Origin: a virus
Direction: 5' to 3' (one strand)
Virus record (IMG/VR): IMGVR_UViG_3300036046_000008
DNA length: 48,745 nucleotides
Each line of letters begins with the position of its first letter. Within the stretch, counting starts at the first letter, position 1. The notes under the pieces were generated by a model. That model was not told where the DNA came from. It saw nothing but the letters and a program-made list of their open reading frames with translations, and made no database searches. The position numbers and the translations under genes are program-made. This document shows, in pieces, positions 1 to 48,745 of the stretch.

Positions 1-127
1 AGATTGACTACCGCCCCAAAAGCATCCACAGCGTATCTGGGGACTTCGGGGATCCTTCGAAAACCGGTCAACGAACCTCCTCGATCGGATGGAAATTAAC
101 GGTTTTGTAGGGTCGGGAAAAAGGGTC
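1..127. repeat. Window-end duplication: identical to 48619..48745 (terminal redundancy or circular-closure overlap)
   Basis: Direct reading: first 127 nt match last 127 nt exactly; repeat is truncated by the window edge so true length unknown. Confidence 0.9.
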
Positions 128-796: not shown

Positions 797-833
797 TAGG
801 GGGTCTCATTATATGCCCTGCAATTTTCGCGCG
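797..833 (-). promoter_or_regulatory. Conserved promoter-like element copy (TATAATGAGACCCCCTAC core)
   Basis: Minus strand reads CGCGCGAAAATTGCAGGGCATATAATGAGACCCCCTAC; abuts the tRNA 3' end and precedes gene 509..778. Confidence 0.6.
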
Positions 834-906
834 TGGGCCCCGTGGGACTCGAACCCACACCTTACGGATTAAAAGTCCGCTACTCTGCCAATTGAGCTAG
901 AGGCCC
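834..906 (-). tRNA. tRNA-Lys (anticodon UUU)
   Basis: Manual cloverleaf fold: 7-bp acceptor stem GGGCCTC/GGGGCCC, D-loop AATTGGCA, anticodon loop CTTTTAA, T-loop TTCGAGT, discriminator A; no encoded CCA. Confidence 0.85.
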
Positions 907-913
907 AAACCCC

Positions 914-2062
914 TTACAAATATGCCGAGCGACTAGACTCGTTGAAAGAACGCTTTCGCCGAAGCGCTTCGCGAATTGCCCGATCCAGAGGCGCCGCACT
1001 CATCAACGTGTAGTAATATAACTTCTCATGCTGTGAGTCAAGACGATCGATTCGTCCTTGCGCTTGCTTATACATGCGATACGAATAAGTAAGCGAATAA
1101 AAGCACATAGCGTTAGTCTCAGTGCAATTCCATCCTTCGGCCCCGGCCAGATACTGCACCAAATATACCCAGGAATCTGAGGTCGGGATGTCTTCATGAC
1201 GATGCCCGTTCCATTCCGCAACTGCTACATCTTCGGCAAGCTCCCGCAGGATCGCAAGCTCATAGTCAAAGTTGTAGAATATAACTAAACGGGGATGTTT
1301 TTCCAGCAAAGCCCTCACCGCAAGGAACCTTGTCTCGTCCGTATTCAAGACCTTTCTTGCTACGTAGAAGGTGTTGGAGATAGTCTCGATCGGTGCCTCT
1401 TTGAAGACGTCCCAACGATCCCGCCACACCTGAATATACTTCTCACGGTCGTATTGCACAGGTGTTTCAACGAACTCTCGGTCAAGATGCGATCGGTAAG
1501 TCATCCCCACAAGAATCTGCGCACGCAGCTTGTACAGTTTGGTAAGACCAACGTAGCGATCGACTTTAGGGAACTTGGTAAAAGTATTGTACACGGCATG
1601 TTGCCGGGTGAAATCCGTCTTGTTCTTGTAGAACCCATTTGCGATAAAGACCGGAACGTAATCCATCCATGTGTCGCCCGGCGTTGCCGACAACAAAATC
1701 CAAGGGTTGTCTTTGACGACCTTCAGAAACGCCTTGACCCAGGCCCCATACCCAACCAGTCGCTGTTCGTCCGCAATGAGAAATATACCCTCAGCATCCG
1801 TATATTTCGCCAAGTTCTGCCAACTGTCGACGGTCAACTCCGTTACTCCTACCAAAGCCGCCTCTCGTTCCCAGTCACCGCTGTCCCGCTTCTTCGCAGT
1901 GGTGATGACAAGCAGCTTACGGTCACTGTGGTTCCGCTGGTAATATACCAGAGCGGTCAACGTCTTGCCCGAACCCACAGGACCATACAGAATCTTGCCC
2001 GTCGACAACTTCGCGAGAGCCTCCTCCTGATGCGGATATAGCTTCACGTGTCCGAGGTCCAT
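914..2062 (-). CDS. ATP-dependent helicase (SF2-like)
   Basis: Track ORF 382 aa; Walker A GPVGSGKT, Walker B-like LIADEQ, helicase motif VI-like QGRIDR; start overlaps upstream gene by 19 nt. Confidence 0.6.
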   Translation of the reverse strand: MDLGHVKLYPHQEEALAKLSTGKILYGPVGSGKTLTALVYYQRNHSDRKLLVITTAKKRDSGDWEREAALVGVTELTVDSWQNLAKYTDAEGIFLIADEQRLVGYGAWVKAFLKVVKDNPWILLSATPGDTWMDYVPVFIANGFYKNKTDFTRQHAVYNTFTKFPKVDRYVGLTKLYKLRAQILVGMTYRSHLDREFVETPVQYDREKYIQVWRDRWDVFKEAPIETISNTFYVARKVLNTDETRFLAVRALLEKHPRLVIFYNFDYELAILRELAEDVAVAEWNGHRHEDIPTSDSWVYLVQYLAGAEGWNCTETNAMCFYSLTYSYRMYKQAQGRIDRLDSQHEKLYYYTLMSAAPLDRAIREALRRKRSFNESSRSAYL

Positions 2063-2423: not shown

Positions 2424-2460
2424 GTAGGGGGTCTCATTATACAACATGTGATTCCCGCGA
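2424..2460 (-). promoter_or_regulatory. Conserved promoter-like element copy
   Basis: Minus strand TCGCGGGAATCACATGTTGTATAATGAGACCCCCTAC; overlaps stop codon of 2437..2895. Confidence 0.55.
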
Positions 2461-2895
2461 GACCGGCCAATAATATGGTAGATCCGCTGGCACCCCCGGC
2501 CACATCAGACTGTATCGACCTGGATCCTTCCGGATGAGATTGCTCTGATGCGAGCGATGAAATTCTTTGATCCCGTGCCACCACGGAACCTGGCGATCCG
2601 GGTATTCCTTTAGCATCTGTGTGAAATATGGCAGTAGAGAGTCTGCGTATCCACGGGTTCGCCAGACTCGGCAGGAGATCAGCCCATATGCGCAAAGCGA
2701 TCCCTCGTAGCCTTGCCACATGCGAGCTGCGGGATGCGTGCGCCACCCCTTAGTCTCCCCACGCAAAGCCTTGAGGATCTGCATCGTCTCGACCCGCTGC
2801 TTTCCAAGGCGTTTTTGGTCTAGACGTGTGAGTGATTCATAATAACCAATCTCAGGCAGAAAAGTGTTGACCATAAATATCTCCCTCCGAGGCAA
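2437..2895 (-). CDS. hypothetical protein
   Basis: Track ORF 152 aa; no motif recognised. Confidence 0.5.
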   Translation of the reverse strand: MPRREIFMVNTFLPEIGYYESLTRLDQKRLGKQRVETMQILKALRGETKGWRTHPAARMWQGYEGSLCAYGLISCRVWRTRGYADSLLPYFTQMLKEYPDRQVPWWHGIKEFHRSHQSNLIRKDPGRYSLMWPGVPADLPYYWPVSRESHVV

Positions 2896-4692: not shown

Positions 4693-4938
4693 CTAGCGCA
4701 TCTTTCTTACCGCCCGTCGAAACGCAACATACCGTTCCTCATGCTTTTCGCTCCACGTCCGTCGAACCGCAGACACGACTACCACGCCAACTCGGGTATA
4801 GCTTCGGGCAGCCCACTCGCAATTTTCCCATTCCGTCTGCCATGTCCGGCGCCATATCGGTTTTTCCCGTTGCACGCGGTAAATAGTAAGATCGGACAAG
4901 TCAACAAGATTACGCCAGAATCGTTTAACCCACATCAA
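4693..4938 (-). CDS. hypothetical protein
   Basis: Track ORF 81 aa; start overlaps upstream stop. Confidence 0.4.
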   Translation of the reverse strand: MMWVKRFWRNLVDLSDLTIYRVQREKPIWRRTWQTEWENCEWAARSYTRVGVVVVSAVRRTWSEKHEERYVAFRRAVRKMR

Positions 4939-5404: not shown

Positions 5405-5743
5405 TCAGCTAGTGTGACTGAAGACCTTGACTTCAGGCTCCGGATTGATGAGAACGAGCTCCTCGCCCAGATCAGTCACCGGCTCGAAGTTGCTCTCGAA
5501 TGCGCGAGTGGTATACACCTTGAAGCCTCGTCCCGCGTAGAGAACCCAGTCCCCAGCAAACGCTCGAGTCTGCCCCGTCGACAAGGGGCGCTGCACGTTC
5601 ACCTTGACGAACGGCGTCCTCGATGCGGTGTAACGCACCTCGCCATCGCACCAATCGGCGACATCCTCCAGGTTGTCCTCGGTGACCTGAACGGCCTCGA
5701 CCTCGAACGGCTTACGCTTGTACAGCTCCGGGCTGACACCCAT
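5405..5743 (-). CDS. hypothetical protein
   Basis: Track ORF 112 aa; strong RBS AGGAGA. Confidence 0.65.
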   Translation of the reverse strand: MGVSPELYKRKPFEVEAVQVTEDNLEDVADWCDGEVRYTASRTPFVKVNVQRPLSTGQTRAFAGDWVLYAGRGFKVYTTRAFESNFEPVTDLGEELVLINPEPEVKVFSHTS

Positions 5744-5764: not shown

Positions 5765-6043
5765 TCAACGATAATAGACGCCGGCAACGACGACGCCTTT
5801 CCAACGCACTGGCCCAGCGTGCACCTTAGTGGACCAGCTTTTACATTGTGCGAGAACAGGGCAATCGTAGCAGATGTTCTGGGCCTGCCTTACAAGACCC
5901 TGGCGCGCCCAGTTACCTCTGCCGTCAAATATAAACGAGTCTGGAAACTGCGCGCACAACGCATCTCCCATCCATTCATACTTTTTTACAACTTCGAACA
6001 AAGGGCTATATACGTCGCTGTCAAACACTAGCCTCATCCCCAT
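5765..6043 (-). CDS. WhiB-like (Wbl) Fe-S transcription regulator
   Basis: Four-Cys pattern C-x27-C-x2-C-x5-C (DALCAQ ... ICYDCPVLAQC), size typical of Wbl; ATG second codon of track ORF. Confidence 0.55.
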   Translation of the reverse strand: MGMRLVFDSDVYSPLFEVVKKYEWMGDALCAQFPDSFIFDGRGNWARQGLVRQAQNICYDCPVLAQCKSWSTKVHAGPVRWKGVVVAGVYYR

Positions 6044-6509
6044 CAAACTCTGCGTACTTCAGAGCCAATGGGTCTTCGATAATAGTCACGTAGAGCGACT
6101 GCAAATATGCCTTGATTCCGCTTTTACCCTGGACTTTCCATTCATACGGACGGACAATAAGATCGCAGCTCTTAATATCGACCCAATCCAGCATCTCCAC
6201 ATCTGCCTCGGAGAGACGCGTCTGTCCACGAGACGTGATCTGGATGACGGTAGGGGGCCGGCCTTTGAAATTAACCGCGACTGGCAGCCACGGCTGATCA
6301 AGATCGCCTTCCTCTCTTGCCCGCAGGTATTTAATGTTGTAGCCGCAGTCCTCAAGGTGGTCTGCTTCAGACTGCGACGGAATCAGAACGCCGAAGTTTC
6401 GATCTCCTTCTCGATTATACATCCCCTCCTTCCCTGAGAAGTTGCGGAAAATAAGCCGCACATCTTGCATCACAACAGTTGGCTCGCAAGCGCGAAGCTC
6501 ACTACCCAT
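6021..6509 (-). CDS. hypothetical protein
   Basis: Track ORF 162 aa; ATG with AGGAGG RBS. Confidence 0.6.
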   Translation of the reverse strand: MGSELRACEPTVVMQDVRLIFRNFSGKEGMYNREGDRNFGVLIPSQSEADHLEDCGYNIKYLRAREEGDLDQPWLPVAVNFKGRPPTVIQITSRGQTRLSEADVEMLDWVDIKSCDLIVRPYEWKVQGKSGIKAYLQSLYVTIIEDPLALKYAEFDGDEASV

Positions 6510-10774: not shown

Positions 10775-11550
10775 CCATCATCACTCCGAAACTTTCGGAC
10801 TTTCCGGAAGGCGCGTGCTGCATCGTGCTGCAGACTATCTTCCTCGTCATACCCCAGAACGTTCTTCTCCCACGAGCCGTAGTCGATAGTGATCAGAACG
10901 TCTAGGCGAAGCTGGTCGTTACGAATATAGACACAAACATTGTCGTCCGAATACTCGTCGAAACGACTGAGATCGGCGTATTCCCCAATTGTGCGCTCAG
11001 GCAACGAGACGACGGTATCTGTCTCATCGACTAGAGCTCCGTCTTCTTCGTAATAGGTCCACTCGACCTGAGCATTGCTGGGTTCGTTGTAGCGAAACTC
11101 TTCTTCTGTGATCAAATATGGAGTGCGGCCCGGCTCTGGGCGTTCGTCCGATACCGGATGATAAGACGCTTCTTGCAGTTTTTCGAGTGGGATCGGATCG
11201 TCCTTATTGGGGCCGTCGGCGTTAGAACGCTCCGGCACTGTATAGAGTCGGGCGTAATCTGTATAGACTGCGTAATCGGTGTCGACCTCTCCCAGCGGTG
11301 CCGGCTTGGCGTTCTCCTCGCCGTTTGGGGCCGGCACGACCTCGTATTCCTCTCGCTTATACAGAGTTTTGTAATATAGCTGGGCTCGTTTCACCTCCTT
11401 TTGCAGAATATCCTCAGAGCGCTCTGCCATAGCTTGCCGCACGAGAATTCCGCCCACGGTTGCTCCGACGCCGAGCCCCAACGCGTAGAAGCCAAACGGG
11501 GACGTTACCCTATGAGCAAGCATCGCCCGAATCAGGTTCATAGAATTCAC
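10771..11550 (-). CDS. hypothetical membrane-anchored protein
   Basis: 259 aa; N-terminal hydrophobic helix then acidic domain. Confidence 0.55.
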   Translation of the reverse strand: MNSMNLIRAMLAHRVTSPFGFYALGLGVGATVGGILVRQAMAERSEDILQKEVKRAQLYYKTLYKREEYEVVPAPNGEENAKPAPLGEVDTDYAVYTDYARLYTVPERSNADGPNKDDPIPLEKLQEASYHPVSDERPEPGRTPYLITEEEFRYNEPSNAQVEWTYYEEDGALVDETDTVVSLPERTIGEYADLSRFDEYSDDNVCVYIRNDQLRLDVLITIDYGSWEKNVLGYDEEDSLQHDAARAFRKVRKFRSDDG

Positions 11551-12500
11551 ACCTCTCGAAAGTTAACTCGGTCGACAATGACGCCATCCACGTTAAAATC
11601 GAGAAACACGGACAGCTCGCGCCCGTTTACAAAATCCCGCAAACGCGGATCATCTCCGTGCAGGAACCCGAAGTCAATATAGTTGTCTCCGGTTCCGTCC
11701 TCGTTGATGCGCCAGCCAACAACCTGCCCAGCTTTGGACCGTTCCATTCCGAGCATGTCGTAGACCTCGTTCAGGAACACATGTCCCTTTGCCTTAAGCA
11801 AATCGTTCGCATAGTTCTGCTGAGCGCGCAGGAACAGATAGTTGGCGTGCGGCACGTCCTGCCAATGCTGGTTGTACTCGTCAAAGAAACGAGCATACGG
11901 CGAATATGCGGTCTCTCCGATACGCTTACGCTCAACTACCTCTTTCGAACCTGTGTCTTTGTTCTCGATCGCCACGCGCTCAGAATATGCGTCGTAACGC
12001 AGGTCACGCTCAACTTCCTCACCGAATTCCTGCCGAACCCGATCGCGATACAGCTTGAACGCCCGGTCCAGTCCATTGTATGCCACCGTCAGGGCAGCCA
12101 CACGAGTGTTGAGGATGAAGTGCGCACGAGCAAACGCGGCGACGGTCAGGGTGCCCACCAAGATTGTGGGGGCGTACAGCCGACCCACGTCAACAAAGGT
12201 CCGCGTGTAAATATAGATGCGATCCCGCAGTGCATCTTCCTCCGTATAGTGATGCTTGGCCACCATCTCGGAGTCTTGCTCGACAGTGCGCACGTTCTGC
12301 AGGTCCTGCTGCGTCTTCTGCAGAACCTCATCGACGCGGAGAGTCGCCCGCGACGCCAGAACGGTGGTTGCCGCAAATCCTACCACGCCCGCACCGAACA
12401 GAATATGAGGCGAGTTAACCTTGCCCGCCAAGACCAGCCGCCCCATCTTTTGGGAGACGGCTGGTGACATGGCTTTTCTAATAAGTTGCAACTTGTTCAT
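11547..12500 (-). CDS. membrane protein, paralog of 15329..16117
   Basis: Track ORF trimmed to ATG at 12500 with GAAAGGA RBS; shares N-terminal TM pattern and C-terminal blocks with 15329..16117. Confidence 0.55.
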   Translation of the reverse strand: MNKLQLIRKAMSPAVSQKMGRLVLAGKVNSPHILFGAGVVGFAATTVLASRATLRVDEVLQKTQQDLQNVRTVEQDSEMVAKHHYTEEDALRDRIYIYTRTFVDVGRLYAPTILVGTLTVAAFARAHFILNTRVAALTVAYNGLDRAFKLYRDRVRQEFGEEVERDLRYDAYSERVAIENKDTGSKEVVERKRIGETAYSPYARFFDEYNQHWQDVPHANYLFLRAQQNYANDLLKAKGHVFLNEVYDMLGMERSKAGQVVGWRINEDGTGDNYIDFGFLHGDDPRLRDFVNGRELSVFLDFNVDGVIVDRVNFREV

Positions 12501-12510
12501 CTTAGTCCTT

Positions 12511-13197
12511 TCAGTCCAGTGGTTCGGGTTGCGAGAGATCGAGCAAATATCCGGACGAGATCCGCCGGACTTTGGCGCCACTTAGATCGTACCAACCCCA
12601 ATTGGCGTCGGTGTACGCCGGAGTCAGATCCAGCAGGTTGTAGAGATCTGAGACGGACACGTGCTGATAGCGATCGAGCAGATCATACATCCGATCCAGG
12701 ACTTCGTGCGCCTCGGCCCGTGTTGTTAGAACCACCTCTTCAAAATTGTGGCTAGTACGGGCTCTCCGACTCAACTCTCGGCGAGGCTGTCTGTCGTCCG
12801 GAAAAGGCGGACGCGTTCGGCTACCACGCCCGGCGTACTGCTCGTACTGAGTGTAAACTCGCGGTCGGCCACCACGCCCAGACCGAACTCTCGGATTGTA
12901 GTAGTGACTGTCCCCGAATAAGAGCCGCTCAATTCCGCCGCTCACCGCATCAGTGATCATGTCTTTCGCAGCGGGAATAAGCACGTCAAGAACCACATAC
13001 TGTCGAACGTTCTGCGCATCGGCCCCTAGGAACGTCTCACGGACTCGACTGCCAAGAGACCGTTTTCTACGAACCACACGGTTGACAACGACCTTCTCGA
13101 TCTTCTTGTCTTCAGCCGGCGGGGCGGGAGGAGGCGCCGGCTGCTGGAACGCTGTGCGCGTGTTTGGAGGAAACTCTTCCATAATATAACCTTCCAT
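12511..13197 (-). CDS. hypothetical protein
   Basis: Track ORF 228 aa; Pro-rich N-terminus. Confidence 0.5.
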   Translation of the reverse strand: MEGYIMEEFPPNTRTAFQQPAPPPAPPAEDKKIEKVVVNRVVRRKRSLGSRVRETFLGADAQNVRQYVVLDVLIPAAKDMITDAVSGGIERLLFGDSHYYNPRVRSGRGGRPRVYTQYEQYAGRGSRTRPPFPDDRQPRRELSRRARTSHNFEEVVLTTRAEAHEVLDRMYDLLDRYQHVSVSDLYNLLDLTPAYTDANWGWYDLSGAKVRRISSGYLLDLSQPEPLD

Positions 13198-15304: not shown

Positions 15305-15335
15305 AAATATAGGGGGTTTAAATGTTGTCTAACTC
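15305..15335 (-). promoter_or_regulatory. Degenerate copy of promoter-like element
   Basis: Minus strand CATTTAAACCCCCTATATTTAAAGGAGCA before ATG of 14913..15290. Confidence 0.3.
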
Positions 15336-16117
15336 ACACGGTTGTAGTGTCGTGTCGGACTCACCATAAAATCCATGACAATGCACGGCCGATCGTCGTC
15401 TGCCATGGTGGTAGAGAACCGCAACTCCAAGAGCAGGTCTGAATTCCAACCGATGTCGTCAGAGAACTTCGTTAGATCTAGACCAAGTTGATTGTACAGA
15501 TCGCTCAGAGACGCGTAGAAGTCGTTGATGATCTTCTTGTTAATGTAGTTTTCTGCTCTCCTCATTGCCTCCATATCACTGTAGAAATATCGCCCTGCGT
15601 AGAGGTCATAGCACAGCACTGTGCCTACACCTTGAATAATGGGTTGATTGCGAACAGGGTTATCACGTACCCGATCTTGCGCAATCTCGTCTCTCAGTGC
15701 CCGTTCTTTACTTGAGCCCAGCTGCTCGGTAACCTTGTGCTTATACTCGGTGAACGCGCGCTCTGTCAGAGAATATGCAGCGACCATGGCGGCTGTCCGA
15801 CGATTACTGACATATACGGCGGCGATCAGGCACGCGCAAGAGACTACACCACTTGCTACCGCGGGAATATAAAGACGCCACGTCAACGAGACGATGTCTT
15901 CTTGAGCCAACGGTTCGGCAACGACATAGTTCTGAGCTGCGTCGTCTGCCCGCCGGTCTTTCTCCTCCTCGAGAATATAGGCGGCTCGAAAACCGGCTTG
16001 TGACGCAAGCACCGTCGTTGTAACAACCCCGGCAAGCCCTACAGTTGCAAGTAATGTAGGCGCATTGTCGACGAGAAACTTTTGCGACATCCGCATCACA
16101 TCAGTCAACATCGTCAC
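15329..16117 (-). CDS. membrane protein, paralog of 11547..12500 (start uncertain)
   Basis: Track ORF 262 aa; shared TM and C-terminal blocks with 11547..12500. Confidence 0.55.
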   Translation of the reverse strand: MTMLTDVMRMSQKFLVDNAPTLLATVGLAGVVTTTVLASQAGFRAAYILEEEKDRRADDAAQNYVVAEPLAQEDIVSLTWRLYIPAVASGVVSCACLIAAVYVSNRRTAAMVAAYSLTERAFTEYKHKVTEQLGSSKERALRDEIAQDRVRDNPVRNQPIIQGVGTVLCYDLYAGRYFYSDMEAMRRAENYINKKIINDFYASLSDLYNQLGLDLTKFSDDIGWNSDLLLELRFSTTMADDDRPCIVMDFMVSPTRHYNRVS

Positions 16118-27669: not shown

Positions 27670-29625
27670 TCAGCTTCCGGTCGGGCGGAGGTAGCTCCAC
27701 TGAGTACGACTGCCCGGCGCCACGTAGTAGCCATCGCCAGCCACGGCATAGACCGTCAGAACCTCCCCAGCGTCAAGAACCTGAGCGCCCGTGAGCTCGT
27801 CACCGTTGGAGTCCTGGTAAACCACGCCGGTCTGCGTCGGAATCGTCACCGTGTAGGTAGAGCTGTCCCACGTCGGAGCGTTTGGCTTCACCTCGTCATC
27901 GGCTGCTCCGGAGTTGCGCACAACCAGAGCCGAATGCGGCTTGTTCAGAGCGCCACACAGCCGCGCCTCGATGAGATACTTGTACTGGTTGTAATCAATA
28001 TCAAAGTCATCGAAGAGACTCGTCTGGCCGCCTCGATCGGCGCCAATAACATAGTCCGTAAGATTGACGACAACGCCAACCAGCGACGGATCAGACTCGA
28101 ACGCCTCCACCTCGACAATGTTAGCGACGCGCATCGCGGTAGCCGCCTCAGCAACGGTCTTGTAAAGGCGCTTCCCGTCGCCGTCTTTAACCAGCATGAT
28201 CTCGGAAAGGACAGTCTCAGAGGTGTAGAATGTTGGCGTACCACTGCCCTTATAGAGACGACGGGCCCGAACCAAGGCGTCAACCAGCTCCTCGTACGAG
28301 GAGTCAGCGTCACCAAGGTTGACCGTCACAGGCACTGCGAAGAACGGGTGGTCTTTCGCAATGGGACGAATATGAGTCTCGAGAATCTTGTCCTCGTCGC
28401 CCGGGTCACGCCCGTCACCAATAAAGATGGCGCGGGCAATCTCCTCCTCGAGCATCAGACGCATCTCGCCCTTCATGAACGCGACAACGTCCAGGTCCAC
28501 AATATCAATCACGTCATCGCGATCGAGCTTCTGCTTCTTATAGACGGTTTGGGGAGTGGTGACGCGGCGCGAGAGCGAGAAAAACTCTTCCTTCTTCATC
28601 GTCCCCTTGACGTAGCCCTTCGCACGAGCCTCGTCAAACTTCAGATCGGCGCTCACGGACTTAATCCGAGAGAAGGGACTCTTCCGAACCCCAGACATCA
28701 CGCCCGAAACCCACTCGGTCCGACGGGAATCAAGCTGAATCTCGCCGACCATCTTGGCGTCTGGGAACAACACGTCGAGATTCTCCACACCGTGCTGCAG
28801 AGCGTAGTTCTCGAACGCGGTACGAAGCGACCCGACGCGCTGAGCGTCTGCCACAATTGCCTGAAGATCACTGTGCGAAAGAACTGGGCCCGACGAGGGC
28901 GTGGAGTCCTGCTCGAAAACGTTACGGGTCATTTCGGTGTCACCTTCCATGTGAGAATGTGTAAGCTGGTCTTGCTCTTCGCTGTCTGCCGACTGGGCCA
29001 CATTGTCGGACTCTTCGGCTGCCTGCTCAAGCGCCGCCCCCACCATATAATGCAGGACATCCTTCTGCTCTTGAGTCATTGAGTCATAAACATCCTGAAT
29101 AGTGAGCTCCTTCTCGGAGCCACTCTCGGTTTTCTCCACGTGTGCAACCTCCGGGTTCAAAGACTCGTGTTCGAGAAGTAGTCCAGTGTAGATGACGGCC
29201 TCGTCTTCCAAATGTTCAATCTCACCGTCCGCGTGGGCAACGGCTACATAATCGATAAGGGCTCCGGGATTGGCGCCGGACAGGACCAGACTGACCTCAG
29301 TAATGGCGCCGTGCAAAACCTGCTTCGCTCGCTCGACTAGGCGATTTGCATAGATAGACATGCGGGTAATATCACCGTGCTGCACCAAAGTCTTAGCATT
29401 CAAACCAGATGGGCTTGAATTAAAGAAACCATACGCGTACATGCCATCGTCACGAGCTTCGAGAATTGCATGTCCCAAAACATTCTCAGGGGACTTATGG
29501 CCATGCTGCCAAACTAGCGGCACGCGATGCCCATCCATGTGCTTGAAAGCATCAGGCGTAATGACTCGGCCGTCGGAGCACTTGAGACCCGCCTTCGTGG
29601 CGTAACCGCTGAAATCAGCTTCCAT
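27670..29625 (-). CDS. prohead protease (HK97 family, U35-like) fused to HK97-fold major capsid protein
   Basis: About 651 aa; N-terminal VPLVWQHGH...LGHAIL protease-like block, acidic linker, capsid-like C-terminal half; ATG with GGAAGGAGA RBS. Confidence 0.6.
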   Translation of the reverse strand: MEADFSGYATKAGLKCSDGRVITPDAFKHMDGHRVPLVWQHGHKSPENVLGHAILEARDDGMYAYGFFNSSPSGLNAKTLVQHGDITRMSIYANRLVERAKQVLHGAITEVSLVLSGANPGALIDYVAVAHADGEIEHLEDEAVIYTGLLLEHESLNPEVAHVEKTESGSEKELTIQDVYDSMTQEQKDVLHYMVGAALEQAAEESDNVAQSADSEEQDQLTHSHMEGDTEMTRNVFEQDSTPSSGPVLSHSDLQAIVADAQRVGSLRTAFENYALQHGVENLDVLFPDAKMVGEIQLDSRRTEWVSGVMSGVRKSPFSRIKSVSADLKFDEARAKGYVKGTMKKEEFFSLSRRVTTPQTVYKKQKLDRDDVIDIVDLDVVAFMKGEMRLMLEEEIARAIFIGDGRDPGDEDKILETHIRPIAKDHPFFAVPVTVNLGDADSSYEELVDALVRARRLYKGSGTPTFYTSETVLSEIMLVKDGDGKRLYKTVAEAATAMRVANIVEVEAFESDPSLVGVVVNLTDYVIGADRGGQTSLFDDFDIDYNQYKYLIEARLCGALNKPHSALVVRNSGAADDEVKPNAPTWDSSTYTVTIPTQTGVVYQDSNGDELTGAQVLDAGEVLTVYAVAGDGYYVAPGSRTQWSYLRPTGS

Positions 29626-29702
29626 TTTGACTGTCTCCTTCCTGGTTAGTGTCAACGGCCTGGAGTGCCGTTTCGGATTTGATAAGACTCATTAGAACCC
29701 CT

Positions 29703-31616: not shown

Positions 31617-32489
31617 TTACCGTCTGGGCCGAGTTGCACCAACCACAAACAGCGCGGCCCCCGCCCCTAGAAGCCATTTTTCGCCTGTTGTACGTCTCTG
31701 AGCAATTTTGAGTTCGGGCGAATTAGCAAATTCCTTGGCGTCACGACGCAAAATGCGGAAGGCCTCTTTTCTCCCGCCAGTAACTAGCGATTTATAAAAA
31801 TTCAATTCGTTCCGAAGAGACCGAACTTGATACGCTTGGACTGTTTTCCGGGCAGCCAAAATTTCGGCGTCCCGAGCCTGTCTCCTTTGCGCACGAGTCG
31901 GGCCGGATGGGCCGCTAGATGACGCTCGATCCTTTCTCACGCCCCAGCGCATTCCTTTGACCCCGTAATGCGCGAGCTCTTCTGAAAAACGTTGGGCCTC
32001 ATTTGCCGACGGTTCAGAATCCATGCCAAGTCCTTTCGTCAAGGTAAACAGAGGTTCATACCTAAATTTTCGATTGGAGATTTCTGTTAAACTTTCGCCC
32101 CTGGCCATTCCTTTAACGCCGTAATGAGCCAATGAGCTATCCGACAGACTCCGCACGGATTCAGGTACAGGCTGAACCATCTGCTCATAAAGCTTCACAA
32201 GCGTTCGCGCCGCTTTTGTTTTCTCGTCTTTCGTCGCCTGCAAAGGCGCACGAGCTCCTGCAAGTGCAGCCGCAGCCGCAAATATTGCGTTCTTATTCAG
32301 CACGCCGCTGGGCGTCTTCACTGGCAGCTTGCATTGGGCTTTGGAGCGCAATTCATTCCGAGCCGGACGAATCAAACACGCCTCATACCATTGCTCTAGA
32401 GTGTAATCAGACGGCGAATATCTGATCCAGGGGGGTAGTGTCCACCAACTTTCCTCCTTACGCAATAGCAATAGACCATCCCGTGCCAT
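31617..32489 (-). CDS. head-module protein with two LAHYGVKGM(R)WG motifs and C-terminal TM (start uncertain)
   Basis: Track ORF 31617..32597; N-terminal 36 codons look non-coding and overlap 32458..33195; motif repeated at aa about 158 and 193 of track ORF. Confidence 0.45.
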   Translation of the reverse strand: MARDGLLLLRKEESWWTLPPWIRYSPSDYTLEQWYEACLIRPARNELRSKAQCKLPVKTPSGVLNKNAIFAAAAALAGARAPLQATKDEKTKAARTLVKLYEQMVQPVPESVRSLSDSSLAHYGVKGMARGESLTEISNRKFRYEPLFTLTKGLGMDSEPSANEAQRFSEELAHYGVKGMRWGVRKDRASSSGPSGPTRAQRRQARDAEILAARKTVQAYQVRSLRNELNFYKSLVTGGRKEAFRILRRDAKEFANSPELKIAQRRTTGEKWLLGAGAALFVVGATRPRR

Positions 32490-33195
32490 TACCTGACGAA
32501 GCCGACCAGGTGACACTAGCAGCGGGAATTGTTCCGGCAGAGGAAATAGGCGCCTGCGCGGCAACCGCATGGGCGCTCGATCCAGACGACGCGGCAAGAG
32601 CCTGATTTATTAAGGTGTGACCGGCTGGCAGAGTAACGGACGTCGACTTATTGTCTTTGCGAACCCAAAGTCTAACCAACAGCCCTTCGCCGTCGGCCGT
32701 GACCGCTGGGGCGGGCGCTACCGTGTTCGTATCTGGCTGGTTTTGGGTAGATCGAACAAACGACGTCAGGTTACGCACAGCCACGCAAACGTGGCTACAT
32801 TTTCGACTAGCAGAAAGAGACCAAGACGGCATCTCAAGGCCGTCAAAATATGTTGCTACATAAAGCGCTCTTTGGGTGGTCCCCTGGTTTGAAAGCAAAT
32901 TATCCTCAGTCCAATCCGAATGGTCGGACGTTACGGTCACACCACCCGAAGAATCAGATACTGACATCCCGCACACCAACCAGTCTCCATCCTGCAGACC
33001 GGAAGGAAGATCGGGGGTATAAGATGTTAAAAAGTTTGTGGCAGACGCAGACGAGCCTACAACGATAGGCTCGGTAGGAGGCTCCGGCTCTTCGCCGCTC
33101 TCATAAATAAGATTAGTCCCCACATAAGCCTTTAGAAGAGGAGAAGTTCCCGCGTACATTGCGGTCACACTCGAACTACCAGCACGAACAGTCAT
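32458..33195 (-). CDS. hypothetical Ser/Thr-rich protein
   Basis: 245 aa; ATGA overlap with terminase stop. Confidence 0.5.
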   Translation of the reverse strand: MTVRAGSSSVTAMYAGTSPLLKAYVGTNLIYESGEEPEPPTEPIVVGSSASATNFLTSYTPDLPSGLQDGDWLVCGMSVSDSSGGVTVTSDHSDWTEDNLLSNQGTTQRALYVATYFDGLEMPSWSLSASRKCSHVCVAVRNLTSFVRSTQNQPDTNTVAPAPAVTADGEGLLVRLWVRKDNKSTSVTLPAGHTLINQALAASSGSSAHAVAAQAPISSAGTIPAASVTWSASSGNGTGWSIAIA

Positions 33196-34947: not shown

Positions 34948-35358
34948 CTAACCCTTTTTTTTCTGCAACGCCGCTTCTACCTGCGCGTTGAGAGCTTTTG
35001 TTCCCTGCGCAGTGACAACACCCTTAAGAATTTGCTTCCCTGAGTCGAGTGTGATCTCACGCACAAATTTTTGCCCCTCTTTTTTAAATCGACTTCCCCG
35101 GGAAGCACTACGATCAGCTGCCCTCCCAACAAGCTCATTATAAGTTCGTTCTAGCTGGAGACGACGATTAAACGCTTCCAATTCTTTGTTTGAGAGCGGG
35201 TCGGTACTCCCACGATTACGACGAATTTTGTCTGTTGTAGCTTTAACCGCAACTACATCAGGTGAATCGGAGTCGATTTGGGCACGAGTTCGACGAACGC
35301 CCCACTTCATACCTTTGATGCCGTAGTGAGCCAGAATATCAGAATCAGCCATTGTCAC
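34948..35358 (-). CDS. hypothetical protein with N-terminal AHYGIKGMKWG motif (terminase small subunit position)
   Basis: 136 aa immediately upstream of terminase large subunit; motif shared with 31617..32489 and the N-terminus of 44540..47221. Confidence 0.45.
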   Translation of the reverse strand: MTMADSDILAHYGIKGMKWGVRRTRAQIDSDSPDVVAVKATTDKIRRNRGSTDPLSNKELEAFNRRLQLERTYNELVGRAADRSASRGSRFKKEGQKFVREITLDSGKQILKGVVTAQGTKALNAQVEAALQKKKG

Positions 35359-38713: not shown

Positions 38714-39220
38714 TCACCCCACAACGACATAAAGCGTATCAGGATCTTTAGTAACAATCGCGTCATACTCGGCAAGGGTCCCGCTCCACCATTGGCCTGC
38801 CTCACCTTGAGGCCCCTGCTCACCTTGAGGCCCCTGCTCACCTTGAGGCCCCTGCTCACCTTGAGGCCCCTGCATCGGCCCGATGTTGACCCAATCAGAA
38901 CCATCCCAAATATAACCGTTGTTGGTGTCTTCGGTAATGTACAAATCGTTCAGATCAGCGCTAACCGGCAAATTTGCAAACGATGGCACAACTCCTACAA
39001 TAGTAACGCCCTCTCCACGAGGCCCAGGCGGACCGACAGGACCTTGGATGCCCTGAGGACCAGTCGCCAACGCTTCGCCGAGCTCTGAGAAGGGCGTAAT
39101 TCCATCCCCAATATAAAAAACTCTAAGATCGGTAACGAACCCGATCTCACCGTCTAGCAAGATAGGATTTGAGTTGAGCCATTCGCTTTCAGTTCCTCGC
39201 CGAATTCGAATTACATACAT
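38714..39220 (-). CDS. tail fibre protein with collagen-like (GPQGEQ)x4 repeat
   Basis: Track ORF trimmed to ATG with AAGGAG RBS; N- and C-termini paralogous to 40245..41804. Confidence 0.6.
   Translation of the reverse strand: MYVIRIRRGTESEWLNSNPILLDGEIGFVTDLRVFYIGDGITPFSELGEALATGPQGIQGPVGPPGPRGEGVTIVGVVPSFANLPVSADLNDLYITEDTNNGYIWDGSDWVNIGPMQGPQGEQGPQGEQGPQGEQGPQGEAGQWWSGTLAEYDAIVTKDPDTLYVVVG
38801..38872. repeat. Perfect tandem repeat, 18 bp x 4 (CTCACCTTGAGGCCCCTG)
   Basis: Seen in sequence; encodes GPQGEQ collagen-like triplets in 38714..39220. Confidence 0.9.
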
Positions 39221-39240
39221 CAAACGCTCCTTACCCGTAG

Positions 39241-40224
39241 CTACTTGGAGAGCCACGCACAATCGGAAGAAGCCAGCGACTTAAGAAATTCCCGCGTCCG
39301 TGGTTCACCATCAGCCAGATACCAATTAACGCCCGGACGGTTATTCCGCGTCGAATTAAACCAAGCCACAGTCATAAATCGTTTGGAAGCCACGATAACC
39401 GACCAAGTAGAAACCCATTCGTCAGCAGTATGCGTACCAGTTTCGCCGAAACCAAACAAACCAGCGTACCGAGCCCGCTCTGCCCACTTCAGAATTCGGC
39501 CCACGCGGTTTGCGGGCCCATCTTTGGGGTCGCTAAGGGTGCCGCCGTGATAGACGTCCATTCCTAAAAGCTTCCAGCGCTCCAACAAATCTTGGGGGAA
39601 CCATTCAGCAATCTCAGTGTCAGTCCACGTGTCATGCGCGCCCCAAGGAAATCCATTCATGATAGGGCACAACGTTACTTGGCCAGTGCCACCAAGCCGA
39701 TCCGCAACATCCAGAAGACGCCGCCAGGTACGTGTATAGTGATCATACGTCATGTCGCCCACGGGCTCATGCGCCCACGTGATCAATGCCGGTTGAGACC
39801 ATGTCTGGTACTCCAAAACCCGACGCTCAAAATCAGCGTCAGTAAAATTAAGGCCCGAAAACGATCCCCACGGCAACGAGCCCCGTGCCCACGCCGTCTG
39901 CGCCACTGACCGTTCTTTTTCAAGCTCGGTCGGCTTACAATAATAACGCTGCACACCAGGCAAGCCTAGACGAGCAACTTCATCTTCGTAAGTAGGCAGA
40001 GGGTGGGCCCATCCGAGATAAATCTTGCTCGGCTGATGACCCGGGATCACCCCTTCGGAAGGCTCGCCGTCACCGGGATCGGAACCGCCGTCTTCGTCAG
40101 GCTCGTCTAGACGGGCAAGTACTTCCATTTTGAAGTCCAAAAACTGCTTTTCAAAATTCTCTTGCTGCGCCTTTGCGCTGGCCTTATACTCTTCAAACTC
40201 AGCCGAGGTCGGGACTTCAACCAC
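39241..40224 (-). CDS. tail-associated protein, possible glycoside hydrolase-like domain
   Basis: 327 aa, Trp-rich; between two fibre genes; function is a guess. Confidence 0.35.
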   Translation of the reverse strand: MVEVPTSAEFEEYKASAKAQQENFEKQFLDFKMEVLARLDEPDEDGGSDPGDGEPSEGVIPGHQPSKIYLGWAHPLPTYEDEVARLGLPGVQRYYCKPTELEKERSVAQTAWARGSLPWGSFSGLNFTDADFERRVLEYQTWSQPALITWAHEPVGDMTYDHYTRTWRRLLDVADRLGGTGQVTLCPIMNGFPWGAHDTWTDTEIAEWFPQDLLERWKLLGMDVYHGGTLSDPKDGPANRVGRILKWAERARYAGLFGFGETGTHTADEWVSTWSVIVASKRFMTVAWFNSTRNNRPGVNWYLADGEPRTREFLKSLASSDCAWLSK

Positions 40225-40244: not shown

Positions 40245-41804
40245 CTAGACGATTGCATACAATGTGTTTGGATCTTTAGTGCCAATTGCATCATAAGCGG
40301 CCTGGGACCCTACCCATTGACGCCAAACCGTCTGGCCATCTTCTTTAATGCGGCCACCAACGAGATTCACGTCGTTAGCTGGAGTAAGCTGCAAATCCCC
40401 GCCAGTTAACTGCTCGACAACCGTCTGGTCAGCCTCTGTAGAATTTCGAATCTCCAAAGTGCTGCCCACGGTACGAATGCCTTTGTTGAAGTTAACTCGC
40501 CCAAGAACCCCAATCCGCATTTGAACAGCGCCAGCGAGATTCAAAACTTCGAGCATGTTGCCGGAGCCGCCCTCGGCTTGATCCCGAGCAATGATCTTCA
40601 TAGCCACTTCACCAGGAGCGGCGTCATTCGACGTCCTAAGGTTCCCCTTCTCGTTGACCCACGTCGCTCGTTTACCCCCGTACCGAATGTCCACAATGTC
40701 AGCGTCGGTAATGGTGGTGGACGTCGCCGTCCGCTCAACCACCAAACCGCCTACATCTTTACTCGAATTGATGATTGTCATCTTGCGGCGCAGCGTCGTT
40801 CCGTTTAGGCCCACACCCATAATAATGTCCCCAACATTACGGGCCTCGCGGACCTCAAAGAAGTCACCCAGAGAAGCTGGTGTCGACCCACTCTTGAACC
40901 CATGCACACGCAAAGCCACAGTGCTATCTTTGGCCGGATCGAACCTGCCTTCGCCGAACTCATTAAATCCACCAGTGCGGACACCATCGTACTTGAAATG
41001 CAACCGATCAGGCCAGTTCGCAGCCGGCGACGCATCGTTCACAATATTGAACTGTGCAACCTGCATGTTCGTGGGGTCGGTAATGGCATAATCCGCGTCA
41101 GTCTTGGGGCGCTGTTGCCACAAATATCGAGCGTTAGCGGTGCCCTCAGTGATACCGCTGCCGCCAACCAGAATAGCCCAGGCCCCGTTCTGTCTTACAT
41201 ACTGTTGGCCATCATTAGGAGCCTCCTCGACTGCGTCGTCTGGGGCGACTGTTACAGCCCAAGTCCCGTTTTGCCGCACGTATTGCGATCCATTACTTGG
41301 GGCGTCTCTCAAATATTGCGTATGAGGATTGGTGGCAGCGGTGTGCTGCGACAGCAAAGTCGACGCCACGCCGACGTTCTCTTTCCCGGCCAGAGCAGTA
41401 TTAAAAACCGCGCCGTCGGCAACGGACAAATATCGCTCATCAATATCCAGCCAGAAATTGTTATACCGCGCATAGATGGTGCCATCGGCGGGGGCATCGG
41501 TAATTCCAGCCCCTCCCCCACCGACTACGGCAGTCCAGGTCCCATCTCGCCGAGCGTATTGTTCGCCATCCAGGGGTGCTTCTTCAACAGGTCCTGGCGG
41601 GCCAACCGGTCCGTCTTCACCGGGAGGACCAGGAATCCCTGTAGTATAAGGGAGCTCAGTCCAAGGAGTAACCCCATCACCGATCTTGAACTGATTAAGA
41701 TCTGTGACATATGCAGGTTCACCGGAACTGAGAATTGGGTTAGCCAGAGTCCACTGTGCATCGGTGCCCCGGCGAAGACGAATAGTGAAAGGTTGAATTG
41801 TCAT
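40245..41804 (-). CDS. tail fibre protein with short collagen-like segment and triple DG.QYVRQNG.WA repeats
   Basis: 519 aa; GIPGPPGEDGPVGPPGP; three internal repeats; termini paralogous to 38714..39220. Confidence 0.6.
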   Translation of the reverse strand: MTIQPFTIRLRRGTDAQWTLANPILSSGEPAYVTDLNQFKIGDGVTPWTELPYTTGIPGPPGEDGPVGPPGPVEEAPLDGEQYARRDGTWTAVVGGGGAGITDAPADGTIYARYNNFWLDIDERYLSVADGAVFNTALAGKENVGVASTLLSQHTAATNPHTQYLRDAPSNGSQYVRQNGTWAVTVAPDDAVEEAPNDGQQYVRQNGAWAILVGGSGITEGTANARYLWQQRPKTDADYAITDPTNMQVAQFNIVNDASPAANWPDRLHFKYDGVRTGGFNEFGEGRFDPAKDSTVALRVHGFKSGSTPASLGDFFEVREARNVGDIIMGVGLNGTTLRRKMTIINSSKDVGGLVVERTATSTTITDADIVDIRYGGKRATWVNEKGNLRTSNDAAPGEVAMKIIARDQAEGGSGNMLEVLNLAGAVQMRIGVLGRVNFNKGIRTVGSTLEIRNSTEADQTVVEQLTGGDLQLTPANDVNLVGGRIKEDGQTVWRQWVGSQAAYDAIGTKDPNTLYAIV

Positions 41805-44539: not shown

Positions 44540-47221
44540 CTAAGCGAGACTAGTCTTAAGAGTGGTGAGACTTACCCCAATAGCGTCAGCCACTTCTGCC
44601 TGAGTGTAGCCCTGCTTAAGCAAAGCCTTAGCCTGAGAGGTCTTCGTAGAAGTCATCAAAAGAGATGTACGTGGAGTGGCCAATTCCTTTACCTTCTTTG
44701 CATCGGAGTTCCTTAGAATTGATTCGAGCTTACTAGTTGTGATAGCGCCTGCTTGAATCGCTTCCCATTCCTTAGGCGAGATGTCGATACGAGCTTTCCC
44801 TGCACCAGTCCTAGCTCTCGCCTCGACCAACGCCATACCATCGATCTTCTTCTTCTCCTCCCGAGTCATGTCGGGATTGTCGCGCCGTTTTGCAGCCCGG
44901 ATAGCATTGGCTACAATTTGAGCCTGGCGTTCTCGAGGGGCGTTCTTCTCAGCCAGGTTAAGCTTGGCATCCAGCGACTTAACTTCTTTCTCATACACCT
45001 TCTTAGCTGAGGGAGAATAGGGAATGTTTTTGACCGCAAGACTTTCTTTCCTAGCCCGATTCGCAAGCGCTTTCATCCGATTGGAGTAAGTCGCATACTC
45101 AGTCTCAATTCGCGTCCCCGCAGACAGCGTAAATGCGTCGTCGGTTTCCGCAAGCTTCTCGCTTCGTTGTGTCTTCGAGACGACTTTACCAGTCTTGTCG
45201 ACGTAGGTACGGCCAGTGTACTCATACACTTTACGTCCTGTGGCGGGATCAATCGGGCCACCTTTAGACATACGCCGCGGCTGGCGTTCGGGAACATCAA
45301 CGCGAGAACCTGCAAGAGAGATCAACGTGGATGCGCCTTTATCGGATCGCCCCAGATACTTCTCTTTTAGAGCAGGGATTCCGTTGTCTAGATACGATTG
45401 TTTGTAATTCAGATTGTGTTTCTCAGCATCGATAACAACCATGGAATGTTTAACAGCTCTAGCAATTTCCGTTTGTGTTGCGCCCATGATAGTCATGTCA
45501 GTAATCAGATTTGAGATGGAACCCATCTCCATCTGTTTACGATCACTGCGCATCGTCGGCATACCCTCATAGGCGGGATACTCTCTGATGGGATCGAAGT
45601 TCTGCAACGCCTTCAGAGGCGGAGAGGTTTTGACTTGCCCTCGATCGTTCGGAATGACAATGACCGTATCCCCATCAAAGTCTGCACCAGACAAACGCTT
45701 AGCTACCTCAGCGTTGATACCAATCGCGTCTGGGGCGTTACCCAACAGTTTCTTTGTTGCCGGGTCCCGATTGTTAACTACCAACTCAGGAATCTCAAAC
45801 GTCCCACCGTGAGGGTGCCGGACTAGCACCACACGTTCGCCATTACGATACGTAGGAGCATACACCTCAGTAGGCTTCATCGAATTCGACGGAATAAGAA
45901 CTTTAGTAGACTGCCTTGGCATGGCGGCCGCAGCAAGATGTACGGCGGCGGCGTCGGCCTCATCACCGAACTTCCGCAACAGGTCGCGCTTGATGACAGG
46001 ATTTGTCAACGACATAATCTCATCGAGCGCAGTTTCGTTTTTATTGTAGAGAAAATCAAGCTGCTGCCTGGCAAGCTTTACATCCTGCTTAGAAAGAAAC
46101 TGAGATGACAACTGTCGGTTCCAAGTGTCCCAGGTTCCTTCTTCATAGATGAGGTTCATAGCAGATGTAACTTTTGGCTTGCCATCCGCACCCAGCGAGA
46201 TGATTTGGCGATTAATGGATGAACCGAATGGGTTGTCCATGTCAATCTCACCCGTCTTGCCGACGGTCTTCATAGGCTTCATAGCGTCAAGCTTATTGCC
46301 CGTACTCGACTTATTAGTATTAAAAACCAAGTCGACGCCGGCAGGCAGATCATCTTTGTAGACAGCCATCCCTTTGAGAAAGTGCGTCCCATCAACAGCA
46401 ACCCGGACCTGCGCGTAATTACCTCCACCAAGTGACAAATCAGCCACGCCCGGGCGCACAAAGATCACACCATCGGCATCGGCGCCGCCATCTTCTGCGT
46501 AATTAATTCCAATTCGCTTTGAATCCACCGACAATGGAGGAAGAAGGCCAAGGTTTGTGCGACCTCCATCATCAGAGAACTCATTGATCTGACGTAGATT
46601 CGCACGGTTTGCCCACGCTTCCTTCTGCGTTACCGACTCAGGAACCAGTACTTTATACTCGGTCAACAAGCCAGTTCCAACCTGCTCAATCTTGAACGAC
46701 CGAGTTGCATAACCTTCCTCGGAAAGCATTGCAACGGCCGCCGCAAGCTTTTCCTTACTGATACCCAACTGACGCTCGACGCCGGTACCAATATCGATCA
46801 TACCTTTTTCGTCAACGTTTGACTTCAACACGTCTGCAATGTTGCGCAACTGCTGAGTCTTATCAAGCTGGCCGGCTTTTAACAGCTCTCTAACAGAACT
46901 CTCATTGATACCCAACCGCTCCCCGATGACCGTATTCGCGGCGCCTTTTGCTTTGAGGCGCTGCGCAAACGTAATATCAGCCGCTCTTGCTTCCGCCTTA
47001 GCAATCGACTTCAGCGCCCGAAGTTCTTTAGTCGTGAGACCAACGCCTTCCGCAACCTGAGCTTCTGTCATCCCTTGCTTCTGCATTGACGATACGTAAT
47101 CCAAAAAAGATTTACTACGATTTGCGACGTTGCCGCCGGAGCCCCAAGGATAACGACCAGAACGACGAAGAATGCCGTAATGCTGAAGGGAATTGGTCTC
47201 ATCTTCCGTAATAACGAACAA
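44540..47221 (-). CDS. Non-canonical RNA polymerase-like protein (multisubunit-RNAP beta-prime-like double-psi beta-barrel motifs, YonO-like) with N- and C-terminal HTH-like segments
   Basis: 893 aa; VRHPHGGTFEIPELVV ... GADFDGDTVIVIP at aa 466-523 resembles beta-prime R.P..H..FEP...NADFDGD; GRSDKGAST at aa 624-632 resembles beta GRHGNKGVIS; HTH-like segments at aa 50-115 and 865-893; TTG start with GAGAGGAGA RBS. Confidence 0.55.
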   Translation of the reverse strand: MFVITEDETNSLQHYGILRRSGRYPWGSGGNVANRSKSFLDYVSSMQKQGMTEAQVAEGVGLTTKELRALKSIAKAEARAADITFAQRLKAKGAANTVIGERLGINESSVRELLKAGQLDKTQQLRNIADVLKSNVDEKGMIDIGTGVERQLGISKEKLAAAVAMLSEEGYATRSFKIEQVGTGLLTEYKVLVPESVTQKEAWANRANLRQINEFSDDGGRTNLGLLPPLSVDSKRIGINYAEDGGADADGVIFVRPGVADLSLGGGNYAQVRVAVDGTHFLKGMAVYKDDLPAGVDLVFNTNKSSTGNKLDAMKPMKTVGKTGEIDMDNPFGSSINRQIISLGADGKPKVTSAMNLIYEEGTWDTWNRQLSSQFLSKQDVKLARQQLDFLYNKNETALDEIMSLTNPVIKRDLLRKFGDEADAAAVHLAAAAMPRQSTKVLIPSNSMKPTEVYAPTYRNGERVVLVRHPHGGTFEIPELVVNNRDPATKKLLGNAPDAIGINAEVAKRLSGADFDGDTVIVIPNDRGQVKTSPPLKALQNFDPIREYPAYEGMPTMRSDRKQMEMGSISNLITDMTIMGATQTEIARAVKHSMVVIDAEKHNLNYKQSYLDNGIPALKEKYLGRSDKGASTLISLAGSRVDVPERQPRRMSKGGPIDPATGRKVYEYTGRTYVDKTGKVVSKTQRSEKLAETDDAFTLSAGTRIETEYATYSNRMKALANRARKESLAVKNIPYSPSAKKVYEKEVKSLDAKLNLAEKNAPRERQAQIVANAIRAAKRRDNPDMTREEKKKIDGMALVEARARTGAGKARIDISPKEWEAIQAGAITTSKLESILRNSDAKKVKELATPRTSLLMTSTKTSQAKALLKQGYTQAEVADAIGVSLTTLKTSLA

Positions 47222-48152: not shown

Positions 48153-48689
48153 TTATATGCTTTTTTGGTCAGATCGCGCGAAGAACGCAAAACGGTAAGA
48201 AGTTGGGAACGCCGGCTCGCCTTCTTGAATAGACGCAAAAAGATCATGAAGGAGGATCCCGTAGAACATGCACGTGATCCAAGCGTTCCCCACAACCTCG
48301 TTCGTGTCCAAGTTGATCACTTGTTTACGTCGCACCCACGAATATGGCCAGAACGTATATAGACCAAGACGATGACCTTGATGGTGGTACTTCATCGCGA
48401 ACCATCGAGGGCGCCAAGACAAATTATCGACATGCGAGTTCGATAGGTCGTAATCGTGATGTATGACACTATCAAAGTATTCGGACGGCGGGGGATCTAA
48501 GAAAGCGCGTGCCACAAGAAACGCAACCGGGCAAATGCGTCGCTCACCGTTGACATACAAACCCACATAGTAACGACCCTGTTGGTTTGAGCAAGGACGG
48601 AGCAGTCGATCTGTGTCGAGATTGACTACCGCCCCAAAAGCATCCACAGCGTATCTGGGGACTTCGGGGATCCTTCGAAAACCGGTCAA
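48153..48689 (-). CDS. HNH homing endonuclease (NUMOD4-like N-terminus)
   Basis: 178 aa; IPEVPRYAVDAFGAVVN and HHDYDLSNSHVDNL; TTG start after GAGGAGG RBS; 5' end lies inside the terminal duplication. Confidence 0.6.
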   Translation of the reverse strand: MTGFRRIPEVPRYAVDAFGAVVNLDTDRLLRPCSNQQGRYYVGLYVNGERRICPVAFLVARAFLDPPPSEYFDSVIHHDYDLSNSHVDNLSWRPRWFAMKYHHQGHRLGLYTFWPYSWVRRKQVINLDTNEVVGNAWITCMFYGILLHDLFASIQEGEPAFPTSYRFAFFARSDQKSI

Positions 48690-48745
48690 CGAACCTCCTC
48701 GATCGGATGGAAATTAACGGTTTTGTAGGGTCGGGAAAAAGGGTC

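Follow-up and report, generated by a model that had tools for sequence, protein, structure and literature searches.

A phage gene for a WhiB-like protein of a rare branch with a differing C-terminal end, from an uncultured siphovirus genome

Among known WhiB-like (Wbl) proteins, WhiB1 and WhiB3 of Mycobacterium tuberculosis (PDB 6ONO and 8CWR/8CYF; PF02467) are the closest to the product of a small gene that we have analysed in the viral DNA record IMGVR_UViG_3300036046_000008 of IMG/VR (48,745 nucleotides, the whole of which is referred to below as the window). Every structurally characterised Wbl, together with all three phage Wbls tested, binds region 4 of the sigma factor sigma-A (sigma-A4) (PMC13013590). 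Of 2951 actinophage genomes 24% carry whiB genes, the most abundant class of regulator there (PMC8612146), and phages dominate 19 of the 24 small subfamilies of Wbl (PMC13013590). The present protein takes its place among these numerous small and divergent subfamilies, so that a divergent phage Wbl is to be expected and, these being the commonest actinophage regulators, the finding of another phage whiB-like gene is in itself routine. The WhiB of phage TM4 inhibits or competes with the function of host WhiB2, and the Wbl binding mode has been likened explicitly to that of the T4 appropriator AsiA (PMC13013590). The latter is a functional analogy only: like the Wbls encoded by phages, AsiA is small and attaches to the primary sigma factor of the host at region 4, by a hydrophobic interface, but it has no sequence or fold relationship to Wbl proteins and carries no Fe–S cluster.

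The open reading frame (ORF) studied here is a real small phage gene encoding a WhiB-like protein that belongs to a rare branch of the family with a differing tail end. What is new is the branch itself, which is small and has been seen only in uncultured sequences, and in which a predicted hairpin stands for the classical turn and tail, the putative cluster ligands and most of the presumed sigma-docking residues being kept; here it is tied to a replication module, in a phage group with a probable two-barrel RNA polymerase of its own. The parts of the gene and protein discussed below are as follows, residues being numbered in the 90-amino-acid form.

5765 to 6037, minus strand: Wbl-like coding sequence, 90 amino acids plus stop (TGA, 5767-5765); the call used in public assemblies (P0001)
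6038 to 6046, minus strand: possible N-terminal extension, with alternative in-frame starts at TTG 6046 and ATG 6043, from reading of the sequence
5927 to 5974, minus strand: N-terminal aromatic-patch residues W22 (5974-5972), F35 (5935-5933) and F37 (5929-5927), from HMMER alignments to WhiB1 and WhiB3
5843 to 5956, minus strand: predicted [4Fe-4S]-binding segment with C28 (5956-5954), C56 (5872-5870), C59 (5863-5861) and C65 (5845-5843)
5768 to 5803, minus strand: non-canonical C-terminus W79-K-G-V-V-V-A-G-V-Y-Y-R90, from alignments and two models

The original prediction had recognised four cysteines in the Wbl arrangement C-x27-C-x2-C-x5-C, and these are confirmed at C28, C56, C59 and C65. 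The pattern alone is weak evidence, because it recurs twice in other frames of the six-frame translation of the window (near positions 16034 and 26242); both matches were dismissed, their frames differing from those of the long ORFs that span these positions. An exhaustive phmmer search with the single query against 1.84 billion representatives returned 48 proteins at E≤1e-3. Of the 47 homologues listed, 46 have C-x2-C-x5-C (42 single-domain proteins and four longer ones) and one (P0002) has C-x3-C, the detailed comparison covering the single-domain proteins. When the 42 sequences were aligned, the four cysteine columns proved invariant, in keeping with the conserved spacing that had been anticipated, and so were W22, P60 and V61; C-x-x-C-P-V is invariant in the Wbl homologues, and the gap between the first and second cysteines (Cys1 and Cys2) varies from 22 to 29 residues. 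The proposed family assignment also held against the curated Pfam profile for WhiB, PF02467, which matched residues 25-75 with 28.5 bits (gathering cut-off 23.6; E=2.2e-6). Nine PHROG families matched the protein, eight of them annotated as WhiB-type regulators, and a phmmer search of solved structures recovered WhiB3, WhiB1, WhiB and WhiB4 (best E=1.3e-3). No NCBIfam model matched the protein, a word-indexed protein search with its single sequence returned the query itself only, and megablast with a 7.5-kb stretch containing the gene gave no match among 50,697 phage records.

An AlphaFold model built from the 42-sequence alignment had a mean predicted local distance difference test score (pLDDT) of 86, and a second, built from 14 sequences of the subfamily described below and from these alone, reached 83 with the same secondary structure. 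The Wbl helical fold around a cluster pocket was found, the top 12 Foldseek matches in the PDB were all Wbl proteins, and among the matches listed from predicted viral structures (BFVD) every named entry was either a phage WhiB/Wbl protein or a transcription regulator. The window protein has the Wbl fold and, to judge from its sequence, most likely holds a [4Fe-4S] cluster through C28, C56, C59 and C65.

The aromatic patch (AP) of WhiB1 consists of W3, F17, F18 and W60 (AP1 to AP4), and the published rule for binding sigma-A4 is at least two aromatic residues at AP1-4 plus at least one at AP2-3 (PMC13013590). In the window protein W22 lies six residues ahead of Cys1, exactly as does W3 of WhiB1, F37 lies at Cys1+9, as does F18 of WhiB1, F35 occupies the -1 position of AP2, and W79 aligns with the Trp of the G[V/I]WGG turn. 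In agreement with this rule, aromatic residues are found at AP1 (W22), AP3 (F37) and AP4 (W79), the assignment being made by sequence alignment and position counting. Position counts of patch and tail residues were taken over 114 homologues.

Wbl proteins have two classical motifs, of which the Gly-rich turn is one. Because this turn and the basic C-terminal tail are missing here, we have filed the protein as a divergent variant and not as a canonical Wbl; the description of it as a WhiB-like factor stands as regards family and fold but not as regards the textbook form. Both models predict a beta-hairpin at residues 82-84 and 87-89 (pLDDT approximately 91), which stands in place of helix 4 and the basic tail, helix 4 being absent from both. 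The protein stops 11 residues past W79, and K80 and R90 are the sole basic residues in that stretch, as compared with a median of 22 residues and five Lys/Arg after the turn in 94 canonical homologues. No Arg/Lys-rich or RGRP tail following helix 4, of the kind represented by the WhiB7 AT-hook or the basic tails of WhiB1 and WhiB3, was found.

This C-terminus defines a subfamily whose members end W-x-[GDS]-[VI]-V-[VIL]-[AG]-G-x-[YF]-[YF] and terminate only a few residues further on. There are 13-14 other representatives, all metagenomic and 29-36% identical to the query, and W79 and G86 are invariant within the group. Scores against the subfamily profile were at least 82 bits for its members against at most 56 bits for canonical WhiBs. 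In a neighbour-joining tree of the Cys core (56 columns) the subfamily did not form one clade, but this short alignment gives a biased test, the canonical set having been chosen by similarity to the query. The ending was not found in cultured phages by tblastn with three subfamily queries; the matches obtained there had E values of 1e-4 to 1e-2, and translation of those with the best coverage showed a GIWGG or GIWAG turn together with a basic tail, unlike in the window Wbl. Among 15 Wbl loci from IMG/VR only L023 was partly similar (TGVVAGIYHGK), and a narrow pattern applied to 185,579 species genomes retrieved 46 canonical WhiBs and no subfamily members. Contigs from Joint Genome Institute (JGI) metagenomes yielded no confirmed subfamily locus; the source contig was also not returned, so these samples are probably outside the collection.

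The longest ORF at the locus on the minus strand runs from 5765 to 6046 (93 codons counted from TTG). It contains in-frame ATGs at 6043, the start taken in the original prediction, and at 6037, the start in the public gene calls, and GTG 6028, behind GGGGATGAGG, is a further possible start. A start at 6037 gives a 17-nt overlap with the gene upstream, and an identical 17-nt overlap with the upstream gene is found for the ortholog at locus L008 when 6037 is taken as the start here. Residues 1-10 are modelled with low confidence in both structures, and the choice among these starts has no effect on the other results. The gene has the same nucleotide sequence in five independent assemblies, of which two are JGI metagenomes and three SRA runs; a literature search by sample accession gave no result. 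Its immediate neighbours are the following.

6021 to 6509, minus strand, upstream: phage single-stranded DNA (ssDNA)-binding/annealing-type gene, 162 amino acids (Pfam PF24083, 2.8e-58; phrog_4787)
5405 to 5743, minus strand, downstream: conserved gene of unknown function, 112 amino acids, with a strong ribosome-binding site (AGGAGA) and PHROG matches

The order ssDNA-binding gene, Wbl gene, gene for a protein of about 100 amino acids is found also in L008 and L010, and in L011 the Wbl gene is paired with the latter. The 112-amino-acid protein is 69% (L008), 56% (L010) and 49% (L011) identical to the products of the genes downstream of Wbl in these loci. Across the three, identity to the window is only 30-35% for the Wbl proteins as against 48-69% for the flanking proteins, so that the Wbl appears to be the fast-evolving member of the module. 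Another subfamily member, L009 (68% G+C), is placed in another, possibly bacterial, setting. By genome content the closest cultured relatives of the window are Gordonia phages of the Deejayvirinae and Arthrobacter phage Lewando, which differ in having no Wbl beside the ssDNA-binding gene; in the cultured relatives examined (Gill, Duffington and Lewando) none adjoined it. A scan for promoter-like sites around the Wbl gene gave results at chance level. A terminator-like, GC-rich hairpin of 8 bp at 5776-5798 on the minus strand, which lies about 30 nt ahead of the ribosome-binding site of the next gene, was rejected as a candidate: it lies inside the G-V-V-V-A-G-V codons (GGCGTCGTCGTTGCCGGCGTC), and such sites are not above shuffled expectation.

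Our preferred reading, to which we give a probability of about 0.6, is that the gene encodes a monomeric phage Wbl with a [4Fe-4S] cluster that attaches to the principal sigma factor of the host at region 4 and acts by occupying or remodelling this region. Cluster binding, sigma binding and the transcriptional consequence are each steps that we infer. The four cysteines would hold the cluster, and W22, F35/F37 and W79, placed around the cluster pocket, would dock the protein onto region 4; its occupation or remodelling could then lead to competition with host Wbls or to a redirected host holoenzyme. Its expression would go together with that of the DNA-replication genes of the phage, the likely means being translational coupling to the ssDNA-binding gene. 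Since a hairpin stands where helix 4 and the basic tail would be, DNA is probably not read through a C-terminal motif, and most Wbls are without a specific DNA-binding motif (PMC13013590). The actinophage Wbls mentioned above, namely TM4 WhiB and the three that bind sigma-A4 (PMC13013590), resemble the window protein in being small and phage-encoded and likely share with it the same docking on sigma-A4. By analogy with those phage proteins, promoter reprogramming, for which the Wbl had been offered as a second candidate, is plausible.

Several observations weigh against this reading. The PF02467 match spans just positions 1-47 of the 65 in the profile and ends before the Gly-rich turn, and the turn itself, G[V/I]WGG, is not conserved, reading V-R-W-K-G here with the Trp and the last Gly kept. 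The FF pair at Cys1+8/+9 is in the subfamily mostly reduced to one Phe, shifted by one position, so that sigma-A4 might be bound with another affinity or no longer bound. The loop between Cys1 and Cys2 carries R40, R45 and R50 and is aligned with the Arg-rich DNA-binding motif of WhiB3, and in several subfamily members it is strongly basic, so that the protein might still touch DNA.

One further gene of the window enters into the comparison with other readings.

44540 to 47221, minus strand: RNA-polymerase-like protein of 893 amino acids (phrog_4291, 'RNA-dependent RNA polymerase', 1280 bits; weak Pfam RdRP match)

In GADFDGDTV the protein has the metal-binding motif DxDGD known from two-barrel RNA polymerases, and there are helix-turn-helix segments at both of its ends. 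Its homologues, 48-58% identical over nearly the full length, occur in about 250 phage records, mostly under the annotation 'helix-turn-helix DNA-binding protein'. The probable identity of the protein, judged by these sequence features, is a single-subunit phage RNA polymerase, and it is probably also the first of the two 'promoter reprogramming' candidates that had been put forward.

The basic loop is the starting point for the alternative of a conventional Wbl activator on sigma-A4, which would contact promoter DNA either by way of this loop, in the manner of WhiB3, or by way of a partner protein, in the manner of WhiB with WhiA, and would switch on particular middle or late promoters of the phage. 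WhiB3 is among the best solved matches, GRGNWAR is aligned with its GERGRAR, and in WhiB3 the Arg-rich motif binds DNA whereas activation does not require the C-terminal tail (PMC10245118). The corresponding loop of several subfamily members is rich in K/R, which is consistent with such a role, and the conserved gene of about 100 amino acids downstream could encode the partner. However, where WhiB3 has RGRAR the window protein has G-N-W-A-R, so that one of the three Arg positions is kept, R45 alone corresponding to an essential Arg, with R40 and R50 nearby; neither a promoter motif nor a binding site came to light, and an RNA-polymerase-like enzyme of the phage's own lowers the need for activating the host polymerase late in infection. 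We consider this alternative, the main rival of the preferred reading, somewhat unlikely.

A more speculative idea takes docking on sigma-A4 further. Tail-less phage Wbls with the ending W-x-G-VVVAG-x-YY might form a class of pure sigma-A4 blockers or appropriators, similar in effect to AsiA, that switch off the host holoenzyme or divert it, transcription of the phage genes being left to the two-barrel polymerase of the phage itself (DFDGD, 44540-47221). Rapid divergence of the Wbl would then reflect adaptation to the transcription machinery of different hosts. We regard this proposal as doubtful.

The position of the gene in a replication module, overlapping the ssDNA-binding gene, the conserved four-Cys centre and the missing DNA-binding tail would also suit a non-transcriptional redox or thiol Fe-S protein, such as a disulfide reductase or a cluster or nitric oxide/oxygen sensor, serving the neighbouring replication proteins. 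Such a role is improbable, given that the sigma-contacting aromatics are conserved alongside the cysteines, that the characterised Wbls and three tested phage Wbls bind sigma-A4 (PMC13013590), and that fold searches with the protein found no thioredoxin-like or other redox-enzyme fold. Lastly, a canonical whiB in decay or surviving in truncated form, or a functionless chance ORF, could be argued from the partial PF02467 match, the chance recurrence of the cysteine pattern in frames outside the long ORFs and the word-indexed search that gave no close homologue besides the query, but it is largely refuted, the unusual C-terminus being conserved in 13-14 distant sequences and confidently modelled, the gene order conserved in three other contigs, the sequence identical in five samples and the ORF tightly packed between real genes on the coding strand.

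If the preferred reading is right and sigma-A region 4 is still bound, the protein would be a natural minimal Wbl that could help to separate the sigma-docking from the DNA-contacting functions of the family, and would be a candidate for a factor in the takeover of the host by a group of phages with its own RNA polymerase. In practice it is of use mainly as a host marker, in agreement with independent evidence for an actinobacterial host. The large terminase (TerL) is 76% identical to that of Streptomyces phages, the primase/polymerase 59% identical to that of Gordonia Deejayvirinae phages, and the ssDNA-binding protein up to 58% identical to those of Gordonia and Arthrobacter phages. The genes for primase/polymerase, ssDNA-binding protein and RNA-polymerase-like protein co-occur in one set of about 250 phage records, most of them belonging to Arthrobacter, Gordonia and Streptomyces and a few coming from Lactococcus or human-associated viromes. 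Because the relatives of these genes are mostly from actinophages, the actinobacterial host suggested by the original prediction is supported independently of the Wbl. The premise from which it had been derived, that the family is restricted to Actinobacteria and their phages, agrees with the closest phage relatives being those of Streptomyces, Gordonia and Arthrobacter and with the bacterial loci retrieved with Wbl patterns from the 185,579 species genomes, 46 of 46 of which belong to Actinomycetota. Host genera such as Gordonia and Arthrobacter are typically high in G+C, well above this phage group. The G+C content of the window is 51.6%; we rejected this low value as evidence against a high-GC host, since the related Gordonia and Arthrobacter phages (L006, L012 and L013) are equally low at 52-53%.

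An exact 127-bp direct repeat is present at the two ends of the window (1-127 and 48619-48745), and the 48,745-bp contig was found in two JGI samples with differing start points, from which it follows that the genome is complete and circularly assembled at about 48.6 kb. The window is the complete genome of a siphovirus, and all of its long ORFs with family matches are on the minus strand. Structural genes encode a large terminase, portal, protease-capsid fusion and, in the tail region, a 1421-amino-acid ORF, with further tail genes for a ReqiPepy6 Gp37-like protein and two Mtd_N-type tail-tip proteins, and a weak match to an endolysin; replication and other genes encode the primase/polymerase (1233 amino acids), an exonuclease, a helicase-like protein and HNH endonucleases. 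Individual features are listed here.

833 to 906, minus strand: tRNA-Lys, anticodon TTT, the single tRNA and sole Rfam match
914 to 2062, minus strand: helicase-like protein (DEAD and Helicase_C matches weak, below cut-off)
2437 to 2895, minus strand: Pyr_excise, a pyrimidine-dimer glycosylase of the T4 endonuclease V type
11547 to 12581 and 15329 to 16117, minus strand: DUF6353 paralogous pair (uncharacterised domain) in the replication arm
27670 to 29655, minus strand: 661-amino-acid protein that looks like a protease-capsid fusion, with an N-terminal prohead serine protease (Peptidase_S78) and a C-terminal Phage_capsid domain
31617 to 32597 and 34948 to 35358, minus strand: second paralogous pair, with the short DUF7211 motif (also uncharacterised), flanking the terminase
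40245 to 41804 and 38714 to 39262, minus strand: two tail proteins, each with Mtd_N (Major-tropism-determinant N-terminal) at its start and the tip domain Phage_tail_C at its end

The tRNA-Lys, Pyr_excise and helicase-like genes all lie downstream of the Wbl region. Between 4439 and 4934 there are about 500 nt without a called gene in L001, a 48-amino-acid gene being called there in L002; the interval has short imperfect repeats (e.g. 16 nt at 4711 and 4756), a promoter-like site at 4490-4463 on the minus strand and no Rfam match, and could be a regulatory or origin region. One of the two Mtd_N tail proteins has a fibritin-like segment and the other collagen repeats, and the two may be receptor-binding proteins that serve as alternatives or as a pair.
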